Shown here: positions 1,238-8,831 of the stretch, in pieces
Layout of the letters: every line of letters starts with the position of its first letter
How positions within the stretch are numbered: position 1 is the first letter of the stretch
Assembly: GCA_011046405.1 (NCBI GenBank)
Contig: DSAR01000349.1
Location: 1-37,231, forward strand
Direction of reading: 5' to 3'
Source: Chloroflexota bacterium
GTDB taxonomy: Bacteria > Chloroflexota > Anaerolineae > B4-G1
DNA: 37,231 nucleotides
Made by a program: the position numbers and the translations under genes
The notes under the pieces: model-generated
Told to the model about the DNA's origin: nothing
Database searches by the model: none
What the model saw: only the letters and a program-made list of their open reading frames with translations

Positions 1238-2053
1238 ATGCAAAACATCATCTTTCTAAAATTGGGCGGATCGCTCATCACCGATAAGACACAGGCCTAC
1301 ACCGTCGAAACCCGGCGCCTCGCGCGCCTGGCGGAGGAAGTCGGTCAGGCCCTGGACAAGAACGCCGGTCTGAAATTGCTCCTCGGTCATGGCTCGGGGT
1401 CATTCGGGCATTGGGCGGCCAAGCCCTACGACACCCGTCACGGCGTCGAGACGGCCGCACAGTGGCGCGGTTACGCCGAGGTCGCTGCGGCCGCCGCTCA
1501 CCTCAACCACATCGTGACCCAAGCTTTCTGCAGCGCCGGTGTGCCGGTATGGAGCCTACAACCCTCGGCATCGGCCCGGTGTCACGATTACGTCCTGCAA
1601 CACCTGGACGTCCATCCCATTCACGCCGCCCTGGCGCGCGATCTCGTCCCATTGGTCTACGGCGACGTGGCCCTGGACGACGTGCACGGCGGCACCATTA
1701 TCTCGACCGAGGACATCTTCCTGTTTCTGGCCCATCACTTGCGCCCGACACGCATCCTGCTGCTGGGGCAGGTCGATGGCGTGTTGGATAGTGAAGGCCG
1801 CGTCATCCCCCGCATCACGCCTGCCGATCTCCCCGCCATCCAACAGGCGCTGTCCGGCTCGGCCGGCGTCGACGTCACCGGCGGCATGACCGACAAGGTC
1901 TCGCGGATGATCGAATTGGTGCAAGGTCTCCCGGCGACTTGCGTGCACATCCTCAACGGCGCCCGACCGGGCGCTCTGCGACGAACGCTCCTCGACCCCG
2001 CAATCGACACAGGCACGCGCATCTACGCTCCGCCCAAAGACGAGGATCACTAA
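1238..2053 (+). CDS. ipk: Isopentenyl phosphate kinase (amino-acid-kinase family)
   Basis: Motifs LKLGGSLITDK, GHGSGSFGH, PLVYGDV and DVTGGM..K; adjacent to mvk. Start moved to ATG 1238 because the longer ORF only translates the repeat. Confidence 0.88.
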   Translation: MQNIIFLKLGGSLITDKTQAYTVETRRLARLAEEVGQALDKNAGLKLLLGHGSGSFGHWAAKPYDTRHGVETAAQWRGYAEVAAAAAHLNHIVTQAFCSAGVPVWSLQPSASARCHDYVLQHLDVHPIHAALARDLVPLVYGDVALDDVHGGTIISTEDIFLFLAHHLRPTRILLLGQVDGVLDSEGRVIPRITPADLPAIQQALSGSAGVDVTGGMTDKVSRMIELVQGLPATCVHILNGARPGALRRTLLDPAIDTGTRIYAPPKDEDH

Positions 2054-2069
2054 TCCCACGTGCTTCCCA

Positions 2070-2096
2070 TCTTGCAACTTGCACACTTGCACACTT
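2070..2096. repeat. Second ACTTGCAC tandem array
   Basis: tcttgca-acttgcac-acttgcac-actt, in the same orientation as 1191-1232. Confidence 0.88.
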
Positions 2097-2099
2097 AGA

Positions 2100-2128
2100 T
2101 TGACACAAGCGCCTCGCTCGGTTATAAT
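2100..2128 (+). promoter_or_regulatory. sigma70 promoter of secDF
   Basis: Perfect consensus TTGACA-17 bp-TATAAT. Confidence 0.85.
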
Positions 2129-2197
2129 CCCCAACGTTTGCGTTCGTTTTCATACAAACAAACAGGAGAAGAAAAAAAGCACCGAAAGGATCCCCTT

Positions 2198-4273
2198 ATG
2201 AAACAATCAGAATCATGGCGATTCGCCATCATCATACTTATCGCGCTCGTAGCGCTGTACGTGAGCCTGGACATTGAGCACCCTCAATGGGTGAAAAATC
2301 TGGCTTTCTGGCAGCCGGCCGCGCACAGGGACATCGCCCTGCGCCTGGGGCTCGACCTGCAAGGCGGTCTCAAGGTGCTGCTGGCCGCCCAGGCGCCGGA
2401 GGGAGAGGAGATCGATCCCGGCTCGATACAGGAAGTGAGACGAATCATCGAGAGCCGGGTCAACGCCCTGGGATTGACCGAGCCAGTCGTCCAGTCGCAG
2501 GGGGAACGGCGTATCATCGTCGAGCTGCCCGGCATCGAGAACCCCGAGCTGGCGGTAGAGACGATCAAAGATACCGCCCTGCTAGAATTCGTCGACGTTG
2601 GGCGCATGTGGCTGGAACCGGGGGCCGTCATCACGACGACCGAAGGCCCCCCCACTTTTGGCGTGTCCGGCGTCGAAGAAACGGCGTTGATCCTCTCCGA
2701 GGAAGACGCTATGCCAACAACCGTCCTGCCCACACCCACGGAACCCACAGCGGTTGAGGAGACCGTGGAGGAGCGGGATCTCCCGCCCATGCCCGAAGAT
2801 CCTGCCGAGCGGGCCGATATGTACAGCGCCCCGCCCGAGATGCAGATCGACGTCGGGCAGACCTACACCGCCACGATCTCCACCGCCAAGGGAGACATCG
2901 TCGTCCAACTCGATCCCCAGGCAGCGCCCCTGACCGTCAACAACTTCGTTTTCCTATCCCAACAGGGGTTCTACGACGGGCTGACCTTCCACCGCGTCGA
3001 ACCGGGCTTCGTCATCCAGGGCGGCGATCCGTTGGGGACCGGCGGCGGCGGCCCGGGATATACCGTGCCCGCCGAAATCGGCCTGCCACATACCAAGGGC
3101 GCCATCGCCACCGCTCGCCTGGGGGATCAGATGAACCCGGAACGCGCGTCCAGCGGAAGTCAATTCTACATCGCGTTAGAAGCGTTACCCCAGTTGGACA
3201 ACGCCTACACGGTCTTTGGCCAGGTCGTCGAGGGGATGGACGTCGTCGAGTCGATCGAGATTGGCGACGTCATTCAGAACGTCAGCATCGTTGACGAAGA
3301 CGGAGAGGCGCCTGTTCCAGCCGATACAGTGACCGATCCAACGGTCGAGACGCCCCCGTCGCCAGCGACGACGCCGCAGACGAACGGCGAAGCAATCGTC
3401 TACGAGACGATATTGACCGGTGATCAGTTGACCGGGGTGGATCTAAACGTCTCGCCACAGAACGAGTTCATCGTCAGCATCGCGTGGAACGATGAGGCCG
3501 CCGAGATCTTTTACGAGTATACTGCGGCCCACGTCGGGCAACATCTCTGTATCCTGCTCGACAAGACCGTCATATCCTGTCCACGCATCAACCAGCCCAT
3601 CCCGGGCGGACAGGCCTCCATCACCGGCAACTTCACTCTCGAAGAAGCCCGCCGGCTGGCGCTCCAATTGCGTTACGGCGCCTTGCCCGTCCCGATGCAT
3701 GTCGAGAGTTTCAACCGCATCGGCGCCACGCTGGGTTCCGAATCGGTGGAAAGGTCGATTCGCGCCGGCCTCGTCGGTCTATCTATCGTCCTGTTCTTCA
3801 TGCTGGTCTATTACAGAATTCCCGGCGTGTTGGCCAACTTCGCGCTCATCATTTACGTGTTGATCAACATCGCAGTCTACAAACTCGCCCCGATCACGCT
3901 CACCCTGCCCGGGATCGCCGGGTTCATCCTATCGGCTGGGATGGCGGTAGACGCCAACATCCTCATCTTCGAGCGGCTGAAAGAGGAGTTGCGGCGGGGG
4001 CGACGGCTGATGACGGCAATCGAGATCGGTTTCGACCGGGCGTGGCCCTCGATCCGCGATGGTCAGCTTTCCAACCTCATCATCTGTGGCATTCTCTTCT
4101 TCTTTGGCAGCAATTTCGGCGCCAGTATCGTCAAAGGGTTCGCCATTACGCTGGCTATCGGCACGGTGATCAATATCTTCACGGCGGTCTTCGCTACCCG
4201 CACCTTCGTCCGTCAATTCGCGGCCTTGGCTGGCGATTGGCTCGCCGAGCACGAGAGGTTACTAGGAGTATAG
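2198..4273 (+). CDS. secD: Protein translocase subunit SecD with an in-frame cyclophilin-type PPIase insertion
   Basis: SecD motifs LGLDLQGG, RVNALGLTEP, RIIVELPG, LRYGALP, TLTLPGIAG and GMAVDANILIFER. Cyclophilin motifs FHRVEPGFVIQGGDP, SGSQFYI and YTVFGQV at about 2819-3298. ATG 2198 follows an AAGGA RBS. Confidence 0.93.
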   Translation: MKQSESWRFAIIILIALVALYVSLDIEHPQWVKNLAFWQPAAHRDIALRLGLDLQGGLKVLLAAQAPEGEEIDPGSIQEVRRIIESRVNALGLTEPVVQSQGERRIIVELPGIENPELAVETIKDTALLEFVDVGRMWLEPGAVITTTEGPPTFGVSGVEETALILSEEDAMPTTVLPTPTEPTAVEETVEERDLPPMPEDPAERADMYSAPPEMQIDVGQTYTATISTAKGDIVVQLDPQAAPLTVNNFVFLSQQGFYDGLTFHRVEPGFVIQGGDPLGTGGGGPGYTVPAEIGLPHTKGAIATARLGDQMNPERASSGSQFYIALEALPQLDNAYTVFGQVVEGMDVVESIEIGDVIQNVSIVDEDGEAPVPADTVTDPTVETPPSPATTPQTNGEAIVYETILTGDQLTGVDLNVSPQNEFIVSIAWNDEAAEIFYEYTAAHVGQHLCILLDKTVISCPRINQPIPGGQASITGNFTLEEARRLALQLRYGALPVPMHVESFNRIGATLGSESVERSIRAGLVGLSIVLFFMLVYYRIPGVLANFALIIYVLINIAVYKLAPITLTLPGIAGFILSAGMAVDANILIFERLKEELRRGRRLMTAIEIGFDRAWPSIRDGQLSNLIICGILFFFGSNFGASIVKGFAITLAIGTVINIFTAVFATRTFVRQFAALAGDWLAEHERLLGV

Positions 4274-4275
4274 TT

Positions 4276-5220
4276 ATGTTCAATATCGTAGAAAAACGAC
4301 GTTGGTTCTTTGTCATCGCAGCCATCACGATGCTGTTGTCGGTCGCTGTGATGCTCGTCTCCACCGCTCGCTTCGGCCAACCGATGCGTATTGGCATCGA
4401 CTTCACCGGCGGGAGCATCTTCGTCCTTCAATTCGACCCCAGCGCTGAAGGAGAACGAGAGGAAATCATCCGTTCCGTCTTCGTCGACTATGGACTGGAG
4501 GGGGCCATCGTACAGCAATTGGGCGACCCGGAAGAACATAGGTGGCAAATTCGCACCCGTGAAGTCACCGCTGACGAGGTCAATGACATCCTGGGGGCGT
4601 TGGATGAACAGGTAGGACAGATCGACCGCGACGCGATCACATTCGATACGGTCGAACCGACCGTCGGCGGCGAGGTGGCCCGGGCGGCGGGATTGGCCAT
4701 CCTGGTCGCCGCCGTCATCATCATCCTGTTCATATGGTTCTCCTTCCGGCGCGTCCCGAATGCGATTCGCTACGGGGTCTGCACCATCTCTGGCATGCTC
4801 TACAATCTGATCATTTCCTTTGGATTCTATTCGCTGATGGGCATCGTCGCCGGGTGGGAAGTCGACGCCCTCTTCCTCACTGCCATCCTGACCGTGATCG
4901 GGTTCTCGGTACAGGACGTGATCGTCGTCTTCGACCGCATCCGCGAGAACATCCCCCTGCGCCGAAGCGAACCTTACGAAACGGTGGTCAATCGCTCGAT
5001 CCTGGAGACGATCCACCGCTCGTTGGCCACCGAGCTCAACGCTATGTTCGTGATGGTCGCCATCATCCTCTTCGGGGGAGCGACCATCAAGCCCTTCATC
5101 GCCACGATGTTGGTCGGTATGCTCAGCGAGACCTTCTCGGCTATCTTCATCGCCGTGCCGCTGCTGGTCGTCTGGGAAAAGGCATCTGAACAACGCGCCA
5201 AATTGCAAGCGCGGGCCTAA
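4276..5220 (+). CDS. secF: Protein translocase subunit SecF
   Basis: Motifs GIDFTGG, V.PTVGGE and GFSVQDVIVVFDRIREN. ATG 4276 follows AGGAG, 2 nt downstream of secD. Confidence 0.93.
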   Translation: MFNIVEKRRWFFVIAAITMLLSVAVMLVSTARFGQPMRIGIDFTGGSIFVLQFDPSAEGEREEIIRSVFVDYGLEGAIVQQLGDPEEHRWQIRTREVTADEVNDILGALDEQVGQIDRDAITFDTVEPTVGGEVARAAGLAILVAAVIIILFIWFSFRRVPNAIRYGVCTISGMLYNLIISFGFYSLMGIVAGWEVDALFLTAILTVIGFSVQDVIVVFDRIRENIPLRRSEPYETVVNRSILETIHRSLATELNAMFVMVAIILFGGATIKPFIATMLVGMLSETFSAIFIAVPLLVVWEKASEQRAKLQARA

Positions 5221-6124: not shown

Positions 6125-7066
6125 CTAATCGGGCAGATCCGGATAGACGTCTATCACCTTCCGCCCGCCGACGACCGACTGGGCCGCTACCCGACCCTTG
6201 ACCGAAGCAGGGTCCAACGTCACACCGGCGATCTGGCTCACGTTTTCTGTCAGGGACGCCAGAGGCAGAGCCAGCCCGATCAGCGTGCGGGATTCGTTCA
6301 CGACGAATCGCGGCCTGCCAGCCGAGACCAGGCGTAACTGGGCGGCGTCCCAAACCAGGAAGTACGGTTCGTAATTGCCGCTGGCCTCGTTGTATGAGAC
6401 GCCGATAGCGGCCTCGTACCCCAGGTCGGGATTGACGAGAACCGTAGCGGGCGGACGACCGCTCGTTTGATCCCCATCCACGTCTAACACGAAGACCCAA
6501 TCGGTGAAAGCGGCCGGCGGATCGGGGATCGGGTCGTATAGAGAGACCCACAACAGCACATCTCCCTCATTGGCCCACTCGATGAGTTCTGCCGGTGTGC
6601 CATCCGTCGGCTGAAGCGAAACCAGCAAATCGGCCCCCACATTGGCAGCCTGGATATCCACGCCACCGGGAAATGCTGCAACCGGTTCGCTTGTGTCGTA
6701 GATTATCACGTCTCCCCGGGCATCAGCGGATGAGATAGCCGGGGAAGACGGAAGCGTTGGGGATACCACGGCAGGCGAAGGAGACACCGGAACAGTTGGA
6801 GATTGCGTGGGCATTGGGGTATCGGTGGACACAGTTGAAGCCGGCGTTGGCGGCGTCGGCGTGCTAGATGCGGGCGTTATCGTGAGCCCCCCGGATGCAA
6901 GCATAGCGGTCGCGGTTGGGGCCGGTTCACCCTCTGACGTGGATCGCGAGTACGTGTACGCAACCAATACCACGCCAAGACACAGGGTGAGCACGACGAT
7001 GCTCAACACGACGGCCCAAAGCTCTTTCGTCTGCTGCTGGGCCACGATTCGTTGATATTCACGCAT
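6125..7066 (-). CDS. Membrane-anchored hypothetical protein with a Pro/Ser/Thr-rich stalk
   Basis: N-terminal hydrophobic helix, a long PTS-rich linker and a C-terminal beta-rich domain with LDVDGDQTSG; has its own promoter. Confidence 0.75.
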   Translation of the reverse strand: MREYQRIVAQQQTKELWAVVLSIVVLTLCLGVVLVAYTYSRSTSEGEPAPTATAMLASGGLTITPASSTPTPPTPASTVSTDTPMPTQSPTVPVSPSPAVVSPTLPSSPAISSADARGDVIIYDTSEPVAAFPGGVDIQAANVGADLLVSLQPTDGTPAELIEWANEGDVLLWVSLYDPIPDPPAAFTDWVFVLDVDGDQTSGRPPATVLVNPDLGYEAAIGVSYNEASGNYEPYFLVWDAAQLRLVSAGRPRFVVNESRTLIGLALPLASLTENVSQIAGVTLDPASVKGRVAAQSVVGGRKVIDVYPDLPD

Positions 7067-7259: not shown

Positions 7260-8831
7260 ATGCCATATACCCACCAACCTGATCCAGGGCAAACGACCCA
7301 AATGACCGACAAGAAAAGTCCCGGATGTTTCACCGGTGTATTCACGGCTTTCCTGTTGTTGGGGTTCATCACCATCGGCGCTTTCGCCTTCTGGACCATC
7401 AAGCAGGTCGTCCTGGCACCTTACGAGACCCGTATCTACCCCAACGTCTACGTGAGCGGCGCAGGTCTCGCCGTTAACCTGGGTGCTTTGACGGTGGAAG
7501 AAGCGAGCGCCGTCCTCTCCGGACATCCCCTCGATGCCACAGCGACGCTCAAATTCAGCGACGGGGAGCACACCTGGGAAATCGCCTGGTCAGATATGGA
7601 GGTACAGTTGGATGCCGGTGCAACAGCCCAGGCTGCCTTTGCCGTCGGCCGGGAGAACCTGGATCTACAAACGTTCATCCACATGCAAAGAGGAAGCTAC
7701 GAAGTTGCGCCCGTTTTCACCCTGGACACCGGCAAAGCACGAATTGCCCTCGAAGATCTGGCGCGCCACGTTGCTCTCGCCCCCATCGACGCCACACTCC
7801 GGTTGGAGGGAGAGACGTTGATCGCCGCGCCGGGCCAACCGGGGCGCGCGCTCGACGTCGAGGCCACGTTGGAAAACGTATCCGCCACCATCACCCACCT
7901 GGGTCCCGATAACCGCTTCGCGCTGAAATTCGTCTCGATACCGCCCCAACAGGTCGACGTCGATGCAGCCAAAGCCCAGGCCGAGGATATGTTGGAGCGC
8001 CAGGTGCAAATCGCCGCGCACGACTGCTTCACAGGCGAAACCTTCGAGTGGACGTTAAAACGCGATACCTTGATCACTTGGCTGCGCGTGGAGGCGGCGG
8101 AAGACGGCAACGGCCCCCTCGTTCGAGTCGATGAGCAAGCTGTCTTCACGACGCTGGAAACGCTGGCCGCTTCGATTGGCGAGGGACGCGGGCTCGACGC
8201 CAACGAGGCGACCCGACAGGTCCTGGAGACCTTCCAGTCCGGCGGCGGCGCGGTGGACCTGAGAGTGACACACCCACCCCGCACGTACACCGTCCAAGCC
8301 GGCGACGACCTCAGCCTCATCGCCCACAAGTTTGGTATGCCGCCGGGCCTGATCGCCGAGGCTAACCCCGGCATTGATCCTGATTGGCTCTTCGTCGGTC
8401 AGGAGATCACCATCCCATCGGAAGACATCCTGCGGCCCTACCGACCGGTACCCGCTAAGCAGATCGAAATCAGCATCGAAGATCAACGCTTGCGGGTCTA
8501 CGAAAACGAGCAATTGCTCCACGATTGGCCCGTGTCGACCGGCATCGCGAGTTCGCCCACTTACGTTGGCCGGTTCCAGGTACTTGGCAAGAACGAGAAC
8601 GCCTACGCCAGCCAATGGGATCTGTGGATGCCTCACTTCATCGCCATCTACCGCGCCGGCGGCGACACGTACAACGGCATTCACGCCCTGCCTATCCTGT
8701 CGAACGGCCAGCGTTTGTGGGAAGGATCGTTAGGTTCGCCTGCTTCCTACGGGTGCATCATTCTGGGGATCGAGGAGGCCGAAACGCTCTTCAATTGGGT
8801 CGAAATCGGCGTGCCGGTGACCGTCGAGTGA
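7260..8831 (+). CDS. L,D-transpeptidase family protein (TM anchor, putative PG-binding repeats, LysM, YkuD)
   Basis: LysM YTVQAGDDLSLIAHKFG...L.VGQEITIP; YkuD PVSTG, GIHALP...SYGC. The start may be ATG 7302. Confidence 0.88.
   Translation: MPYTHQPDPGQTTQMTDKKSPGCFTGVFTAFLLLGFITIGAFAFWTIKQVVLAPYETRIYPNVYVSGAGLAVNLGALTVEEASAVLSGHPLDATATLKFSDGEHTWEIAWSDMEVQLDAGATAQAAFAVGRENLDLQTFIHMQRGSYEVAPVFTLDTGKARIALEDLARHVALAPIDATLRLEGETLIAAPGQPGRALDVEATLENVSATITHLGPDNRFALKFVSIPPQQVDVDAAKAQAEDMLERQVQIAAHDCFTGETFEWTLKRDTLITWLRVEAAEDGNGPLVRVDEQAVFTTLETLAASIGEGRGLDANEATRQVLETFQSGGGAVDLRVTHPPRTYTVQAGDDLSLIAHKFGMPPGLIAEANPGIDPDWLFVGQEITIPSEDILRPYRPVPAKQIEISIEDQRLRVYENEQLLHDWPVSTGIASSPTYVGRFQVLGKNENAYASQWDLWMPHFIAIYRAGGDTYNGIHALPILSNGQRLWEGSLGSPASYGCIILGIEEAETLFNWVEIGVPVTVE

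Follow-up and report, generated by a model that had tools for sequence, protein, structure and literature searches.

How polypeptides that leave SecYEG are handed over to folding helpers is an unsettled question. Several candidates have been linked to SecDF: SurA binds the holo-translocon, and binding and modelling work has led to the proposal that the periplasmic domains of SecDF recruit it (PMC9987972); PpiD cooperates with SecD/F (PMC7793623); and the parvulin lipoprotein Mpn444 of M. pneumoniae cross-links to SecD (bioRxiv 10.1101/2024.09.05.611430). PpiD/YfgM, SurA, PrsA and Mpn444 are parvulin-type, separate and non-covalently associated, and the job proposed for them is to receive chains at the Sec exit. 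Extracytoplasmic cyclophilins are also known, as anchored proteins such as L. lactis PpiA (PMC3307742) and the streptococcal SlrA/PpiB-type structures 7L6Y and 7L6Z. Here we describe a SecD that carries a cyclophilin within its own chain. It is encoded at 2198-4273 on the forward strand of contig DSAR01000349.1 (37,231 nucleotides, called the window below), from the Chloroflexota assembly GCA_011046405.1, a metagenome-assembled genome (MAG) in 585 contigs that is 88% complete with 7% contamination.

The gene is a single stop-free frame of 691 residues whose ATG at 2198 agrees with the N-termini of its homologues, the frame also being open from an upstream TTG at 2138, and it is the sole SecD match in the source genome. 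The SecD equivalog model TIGR01129 matches it with 382.1 bits against a cut-off of 244.4, all of the model (1-397 of 397) aligning to residues 50-671 and spanning the insert. Pfam and Foldseek together recover the SecD set of an N-terminal transmembrane (TM) helix, P1 base and head, and an RND-like membrane domain, and the Pfam order is SecD_1st (PF21760), Pro_isomerase (PF00160), SecDF_P1_head (PF22599) and SecD_SecF_C (PF02355). The Pro_isomerase match, to a cyclophilin-type peptidyl-prolyl isomerase (PPIase), covers residues 226-360 with 143.5 bits against a gathering cut-off of 21.7. Pfam gave no Rotamase (parvulin) match in the window SecD, which places it outside the PpiD/PrsA/SurA types. 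The full SecD domain set and the adjacent secF are shared with canonical SecD and SecDF (T. thermophilus 3AQP/5YHF, D. radiodurans 5XAN/5XAP, E. coli SecD); the difference is a cassette of 195 residues in the putative connector between the base and the head of P1. The features are as follows, with residue numbers referring to the SecD chain.

2198-4273, + strand: secD with cyclophilin insert, 691 residues plus stop.
2210-2266, + strand: N-terminal TM helix, residues 5-23; a helix in the AlphaFold2 model, matched in the alignment by the N-terminal end of D. radiodurans SecDF.
2429-2599, + strand: N-terminal part of the P1 base, SecD_1st residues 78-134, ending in LLEFVD (PF21760, E 4.2e-22).
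2654-2779, + strand: N-side tether, residues 153-194, Pro/Thr/Glu-rich and predicted disordered.
2720-3304, + strand: inserted cassette, residues 175-369, absent from the 25 unfused relatives aligned.
2783-2872, + strand: extension ahead of the cyclophilin, residues 196-225, PPMPE..R.DMYS.PPEMQID.
2873-3277, + strand: cyclophilin-type PPIase domain of type A, residues 226-360 (PF00160, E 8.4e-42).
3311-3391, + strand: C-side tether, residues 372-398, Pro/Thr-rich and predicted disordered.
3386-3691, + strand: P1 head, residues 397-498 (PF22599, E 3.7e-28; aligns to solved SecDF).
3701-4216, + strand: SecD membrane domain SecD_SecF_C, residues 502-673, including GMAVD with D585 (PF02355).
4276-5220, + strand: secF, 314 residues, its ATG two bases past the secD stop codon (TIGR00966, 233 bits against 160).
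2100-2128, + strand: promoter-like site read from the sequence, TTGACA-17 nt-TATAAT, a perfect sigma-70 consensus that precedes the start of secD by about 70 nt.

A sequence-only reading of the window had anticipated much of this: an uninterrupted frame, a cyclophilin at about 2819-3298 (near the Pfam borders above) between the SecD segments LLEFVD and ILTGDQL, an extracytoplasmic position in the P1 region, and intact catalytic and proton-coupling residues. All of these hold. The bracketing segments are found at residues 128-133 and 405-411, and because the chain starts with a TM helix, the part of SecD that follows it, cyclophilin included, is extracytoplasmic. A conserved Asp in SecD and an Asp/Arg in SecF have a role in proton flow. 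D585 in GMAVD pairs with residue 340 of T. thermophilus SecDF 3aqp by manual count in the alignment, and in SecF, QDVIVVFDRIRE and HRSL fall opposite NDSIIVSDRIRE and SRT of 5xan. This protein is a normal SecF, alignable with the corresponding half of D. radiodurans SecDF. The same reading had also described Pro/Thr/Glu-rich linkers on either side of the domain. Such flanks are indeed present; they are no novelty of the fused protein, the unfused relatives already owning a Pro/Thr-rich loop at this place.

Comparison with those 25 unfused close relatives defines the cassette, which lies inside that loop, between '..TTT.GGP' and 'VYETILTG', and consists of two parts: a conserved 30-residue extension and the cyclophilin barrel. 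The solved SecDFs match the SecD flanks only and leave the cyclophilin part without a match, T. thermophilus SecDF aligning to residues 35-132 and 422-674 and D. radiodurans SecDF to residues 7-134 and 378-674. Published boundaries of the P1 head and base were looked for and not found, so the placement of the loop as the putative connector between them is drawn from Pfam borders and the alignments to solved SecDF.

Conservation was read across 86 full-length fused homologues. The cyclophilin signature is intact (FHRVEPGFVIQGGD and GSQFYI), and F264, H265, R266, F271, Q274, G276 and D277 are invariant in all 86, as are A306, S321, Q322, L333, D334, F340 and G341, with F323 invariant or nearly so. 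Position 337 is Tyr in 63 and His in 23, position 324 Tyr in 63 and Phe in 23. The catalytic Arg and the Phe/Gln/Phe/(His or Tyr) pocket are thus present at positions that align with solved cyclophilins, and we take their roles to be the textbook ones. Mean consensus frequency is 0.95 over residues 50-134, 0.82 in the cyclophilin domain and 0.73 in the extension, and falls to 0.34 and 0.47 in the linkers (residues 175-195 and 361-399). The contrast between domain and linkers, together with the invariant residues, indicates purifying selection on the cyclophilin within SecD, with its active site intact.

Structure comparison agrees with the family assignment. The domain matches PDB 2mvz (E 6e-33), and the extension ahead of it aligns with 7L6Y. 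An AlphaFold2 model built from 124 sequences has a mean pLDDT (predicted local distance difference test) of 70 and a pTM (predicted template modelling score) of 0.36. Foldseek places the model with SecDF (5yhf, 5xan, 3aqp; E 3e-19 to 4e-16) and its barrel with 2mvz (TMt 0.85, root-mean-square deviation 2.2 over 151 columns), which identifies the cyclophilin beta-barrel fold. The cyclophilin itself is modelled confidently, at pLDDT 84-93 over most of the domain, and both tethers, about 40 residues on the N-side and 27 on the C-side, have pLDDT below 50, that is, are predicted to be disordered. Because of the low pTM and the disordered tethers, a fixed orientation of the module on P1 is not interpreted.

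The fusion recurs. A whole-protein search found the same architecture in 95 of the 120 best clusters at 90% identity; the fused clusters are 60-81% identical over their full length, come from NCBI, JGI, ENA and Logan assemblies, and are labelled merely 'protein translocase subunit SecD', from MAGs of Chloroflexi, Anaerolineae or Thermoflexia. In the remaining 25 the SecD is an ordinary one, about 470-500 residues long. In the family of the source genome, a full-length fused gene is present in 16 of 48 species genomes, across 12 of 27 genera, and 23 of the 48 have an ordinary SecD of about 500 residues. In wider samples, two of the 150 best matches listed from 401 genomes of the class cover the whole query, a library clustered at 50% identity holds the whole fused group as one representative, and the ESM Atlas, where small clusters are invisible, returned ordinary SecD clusters only. 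We take the fusion to be real and limited to a single family; public databases contain it but do not remark on it.

An intein, another self-excising insertion or a mobile element was rejected as the nature of the insert: there is no Hint/intein Pfam match, there are no flanking direct repeats, and GC content stays flat across the insert. As observations beside the main architecture, one genus and three clusters (P0167, P0176, P0184) carry a SecD(cyclophilin)-SecF single chain of about 985-1035 residues, two such loci being L005 (G272, 1387-4494) and L029 (G428). In the same family, four genomes of one genus (G423-G426, genus g235) and G411 gave distant SecD-like matches only, at 27-35% identity, beside close free cyclophilin modules, and contig C410 of G424 has two cyclophilin modules in tandem.

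The inserted modules are of two types. Type A, which includes the window, accounts for 63 of the 86 fused homologues and is marked by Tyr at 337 and by the stretch 'AR..SSGSQFY'; the other 23, of type B, have His at 337, 'SMAN..GSQFF' and a longer C-terminal loop. The cyclophilin domains are 82-85% identical within a type and 60% between types, and for the SecD cores the similarity is 0.82 whether they are compared within a type, across types or with unfused SecDs. In a FastTree phylogeny the SecD-borne B modules form a clade of their own with support 0.98, and the SecD-borne A modules a weaker one with 0.83. An IQ-TREE analysis of 66 modules under posterior mean site frequencies (PMSF) unites SecD-B with free B-like modules on a 100% branch, the other side holding SecD-A and free A-like modules, with one TM-anchored free form nested among the SecD-A rows. 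A single clade of all SecD-borne modules is rejected by the approximately unbiased (AU) test (delta lnL 102.9, p-AU 0.00038), in which the constraint group was defined by location in SecD and the FastTree result had already been inspected. The loop therefore received a module on two or more occasions, or received one that a paralogue later replaced; both types occur in one genus. An ancestral insert of B and A in tandem, reduced by differential loss, might also lie behind this pattern; against it, none of the 95 fused clusters has a two-module insert.

Close relatives of the module also occur outside SecD. The nearest non-SecD relatives in the databases are proteins with a lipobox, of Anaerolineae type, whose modules come in tandem, two in 74 proteins and three in 22, and in the unfused genomes of the family a single module stands behind a basic tail and one TM helix. 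The conserved extension precedes these free TM-anchored and lipoprotein modules too. The tandem lipoproteins (P0002, P0010, P0038 and 93 more) have their modules joined by Pro/Thr-rich linkers, and in many of those with two modules the first is B-like and the second A-like. The source genome also encodes a TM-anchored type-B cyclophilin protein and, on contig C542 (L004), a 423-residue frame with a lipobox, a thioredoxin/DsbA-like part (CPGC) and a cyclophilin with the same extension; a 615-residue relative of the latter, P0083, combines PF01323/PF13462 with PF00160.

If a free module counts as close when it shares 63% identity or more with the query of type A or B, one is present in each of the 23 unfused genomes (19 of type A, 4 of type B) and in only 6 of the 16 fused genomes, a comparison among related and incomplete genomes that describes a pattern and is not a test. 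This distribution suggests that SecD-borne and self-anchored modules can substitute for each other. A link through gene neighbourhood was considered and dropped as too thin: in two unfused genomes a free cyclophilin gene lies two to three genes downstream of secDF, with unrelated genes between. A SecD-core tree of 29 family genomes places the unfused SecDs in two clades and type B in two places, with moderate supports of 0.65-0.99, and a core tree of 111 database clusters intermixes A, B and unfused SecDs, including in clades supported at 0.98-1.0. The cassette has been lost repeatedly.

A parallel comes from another phylum. Among the 150 best matches of a SecD search, 30 long representatives were chosen for a long stretch before the P1 head, and 10 of them (P0252, P0257, P0261, P0286, P0309, P0317, P0319, P0336, P0338 and P0342) have a parvulin-type PPIase (PF00639/PF13616) between SecD_1st and the head. 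A search with P0309 returned the parvulin architecture in all 120 best matches, the named relatives belonging to Patescibacteria or Parcubacteria groups, Buchananbacteria and Kerfeldbacteria. BLASTP aligns the window SecD with P0309 over residues 44-131 against 40-131 and again over 404-668 against 386-647, so cyclophilin and parvulin occupy the same gap, and the flanking motifs LLEF and T.L.G align. In a genome scan, 22 of the 80 loci kept (L045-L066) have a parvulin inside the SecD frame; both SecD and SecDF proteins carry it, and across 25 aligned sequences its His residues vary little or not at all. The position is thus shared with the window SecD, whereas the fold is unrelated to cyclophilin, the phylum is another and the origin independent. 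Three further proteins are noted here for their other domains: of P0335, P0331 and P0339, two show a partial SecD_1st match followed by a domain like FHA/YscD, and one has four CarboxypepD_reg-like repeats before SecD_1st.

What could a cyclophilin do at this place? The reading we prefer, with a probability of roughly 0.55, is that the window encodes a foldase tethered near the Sec exit, a cyclophilin predicted to be active and borne by what would be the single, functional SecD of a bacterium of Anaerolineae type (Chloroflexota). This extracytoplasmic module would have been inserted into a Pro/Thr-rich SecD loop that was already there and already disordered. The module would be an active prolyl isomerase or chaperone, which SecD would hold a few nanometres from the exit of SecYEG, where it would meet exported chains that are still unfolded. 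SecDF would cycle as usual, coupling to the module arising from proximity and not from a shared power stroke. By analogy, such a protein may work like the PpiD, PrsA and SurA chaperones without being one of them: it may share their proposed job, and it differs from them in being a covalently attached cyclophilin. With the anchored cyclophilins of L. lactis and streptococci it shares the enzyme family and the side of the membrane; it differs in that its anchor is SecD, and the module is hence fixed to a motor associated with the translocon.

The sequence-only reading had gone further and proposed a 'pull-and-isomerise machine' driven by the proton-motive force. In that form the proposal is not supported: an accessory tethered foldase is favoured over an integral part of the motor because of the predicted disorder of the tethers, the dispensability and loss of the cassette, and the separately anchored forms in sister genomes. 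The client suggested in that reading, the Pro/Thr-rich protein encoded at 6125-7066, has no support either, as nothing ties it to SecD.

Several observations weigh against a tethered foldase. The 23 family genomes with an ordinary SecD show that the cassette is dispensable, and P0196 (501 residues, unfused) and P0166 (697 residues, type B), identical at 500 of 501 shared positions, otherwise differ by one clean block of 196 residues. Interchange with self-anchored modules would be explained equally well if SecD were a mere anchor. In the cyclophilin itself the position of the cyclosporin-binding Trp varies (Gln in 44, His in 21 and Trp in 16 of the 86; Q332 in the window SecD), and position 324 has changed from Phe to Tyr. 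At pTM 0.36 the arrangement of the domains is uninterpretable, which leaves an active site facing the channel exit without support from the model. In 19 of the 30 long representatives the insertion gap holds no domain that Pfam recognises, so the site also takes other inserts. All SecD-borne homologues come from uncultured organisms, and the surface cyclophilin PpiA of L. lactis is reported to have little effect in vivo (PMC3307742).

Could SecD be the anchor and nothing else? The cyclophilin might need only to be held on the outer face of the membrane, the SecD loop being merely tolerant and closeness to the translocon without functional meaning. The occurrence of the same module on its own TM helix or lipid in other genomes fits such an account, as do the roughly complementary distribution of close free copies (23/23 against 6/16), the length and disorder of the tethers and the repeated losses. 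However, any membrane protein would suffice for anchoring alone, and three separate PPIase captures (cyclophilin A, cyclophilin B and parvulin) have come to one site in SecD; published work also links PPIase chaperones to SecDF non-covalently (PMC9987972, PMC7793623). We consider pure anchoring unlikely, but the main rival to the tethered foldase.

It is improbable, by our estimate, that the module works without isomerase chemistry, either as an additional substrate-binding or holdase surface of the P1 head or as a modulator of its movement. By Pfam domain order the insert sits between base and head, in a connector that moves as SecDF cycles, and the parvulin domain of PpiD is commonly described as inactive. 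But the whole catalytic set, Arg included, is invariant in 86 of 86 homologues of both types, and flexible tethers speak against a rigid effect on a hinge.

Slightly more improbable still is a nearly neutral passenger, a cassette gained and lost through recombination within a loop whose Pro/Thr-coding DNA is repeat-like, and of little selective value in SecD. The mixing of A, B and unfused states on the 111-cluster tree, well-supported mixed clades included, the allele pair that is nearly identical with and without the cassette, and the presence of A and B in one genus are what such a passenger would leave behind. Against this stand the purifying selection indicated for the module inside SecD (0.82, with an invariant active site), the SecD-borne clades of type B (0.98) and type A (0.83), retention across 12 genera, and the failure to see flanking repeats or a shift in composition.

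An assembly or gene-calling artefact that joined secD to a separate cyclophilin gene has practically no chance of being the explanation, even though the MAG is fragmented and source-sample reads give no coverage across the junctions, for the same in-frame architecture comes from four independent data sources (95 clusters, 16 species genomes), the three other cyclophilin genes of the source genome are only 51-55% identical to the insert, SecD-borne modules fall into clades apart from free ones, and the source genome has no second, intact SecD. The read check consisted of one sediment metagenome run (X1), which contained 0.08 of the sampled words. The contigs obtained from it at 80% likeness are short and come from relatives (121 of 149 less than 90% alike), and they are silent on the assembly of the window itself; one contig of 305 nt covers 2660-2967, across the N-side border of the cassette at 2720, and none properly bridges the C-side border.

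Elsewhere in the window, the 6125-7066 protein (reverse strand) is TM-anchored and has a long linker rich in Pro, Thr and Ser, and its C-terminal domain lacks a Pfam match. Beside it, 7260-8831 (forward strand) encodes an L,D-transpeptidase of the YkuD family that also has LysM and PG_binding_4 domains. The surface proteins of the source organism seem often to bear Pro/Thr-rich tethers. Directly upstream of secD, Pfam assigns 176-1183 to the GHMP kinases and 1193-2053 to the amino-acid-kinase family; judged from these families, the pair would fit mevalonate kinase and isopentenyl-phosphate kinase in a modified form of the mevalonate pathway.

SecD and cyclophilin are each ordinary. Their combination in one chain, the two captures and the parvulin counterpart are not. 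No paper describing a covalent SecD-PPIase protein was found in the accessible literature, subscription journals and supplementary files being outside that search, which agrees with the statement of the sequence-only reading that it knew of no characterised SecD-cyclophilin chimera. The search for the architecture across genomes that it had recommended shows it to be present in public databases, annotated just as SecD. What is new is the presence of two paralogue types in one loop, the free anchored module and the repeated loss of the cassette.

Taken across phyla, a PPIase in the P1 connector of SecD may have evolved at least three times, as cyclophilins A and B in one family of Anaerolineae and as parvulin across Patescibacteria, and the outward-facing P1 domain may be a general docking platform for foldases at the Sec exit; we put forward this wider generalisation tentatively, at a little less than even odds. 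If true, the fusions would be 'Rosetta stone' evidence for the recruitment of chaperones by SecDF, which has so far just been proposed. The single-chain SecD-PPIase proteins would give the link between SecDF and chaperones an independent evolutionary support, one that comes from two unrelated folds sharing a position in phyla far apart, plus two paralogue captures in one family. They also make the idea directly testable, the P0166/P0196 allele pair giving the exact borders of the cassette. For secretion engineering, the SecD loop would offer a ready-made place, tolerant of insertions, where folding factors could be put beside the translocon exit. For this family of Anaerolineae, the same reading would make the foldase an exchangeable cassette that moves between SecD and a membrane anchor of its own.

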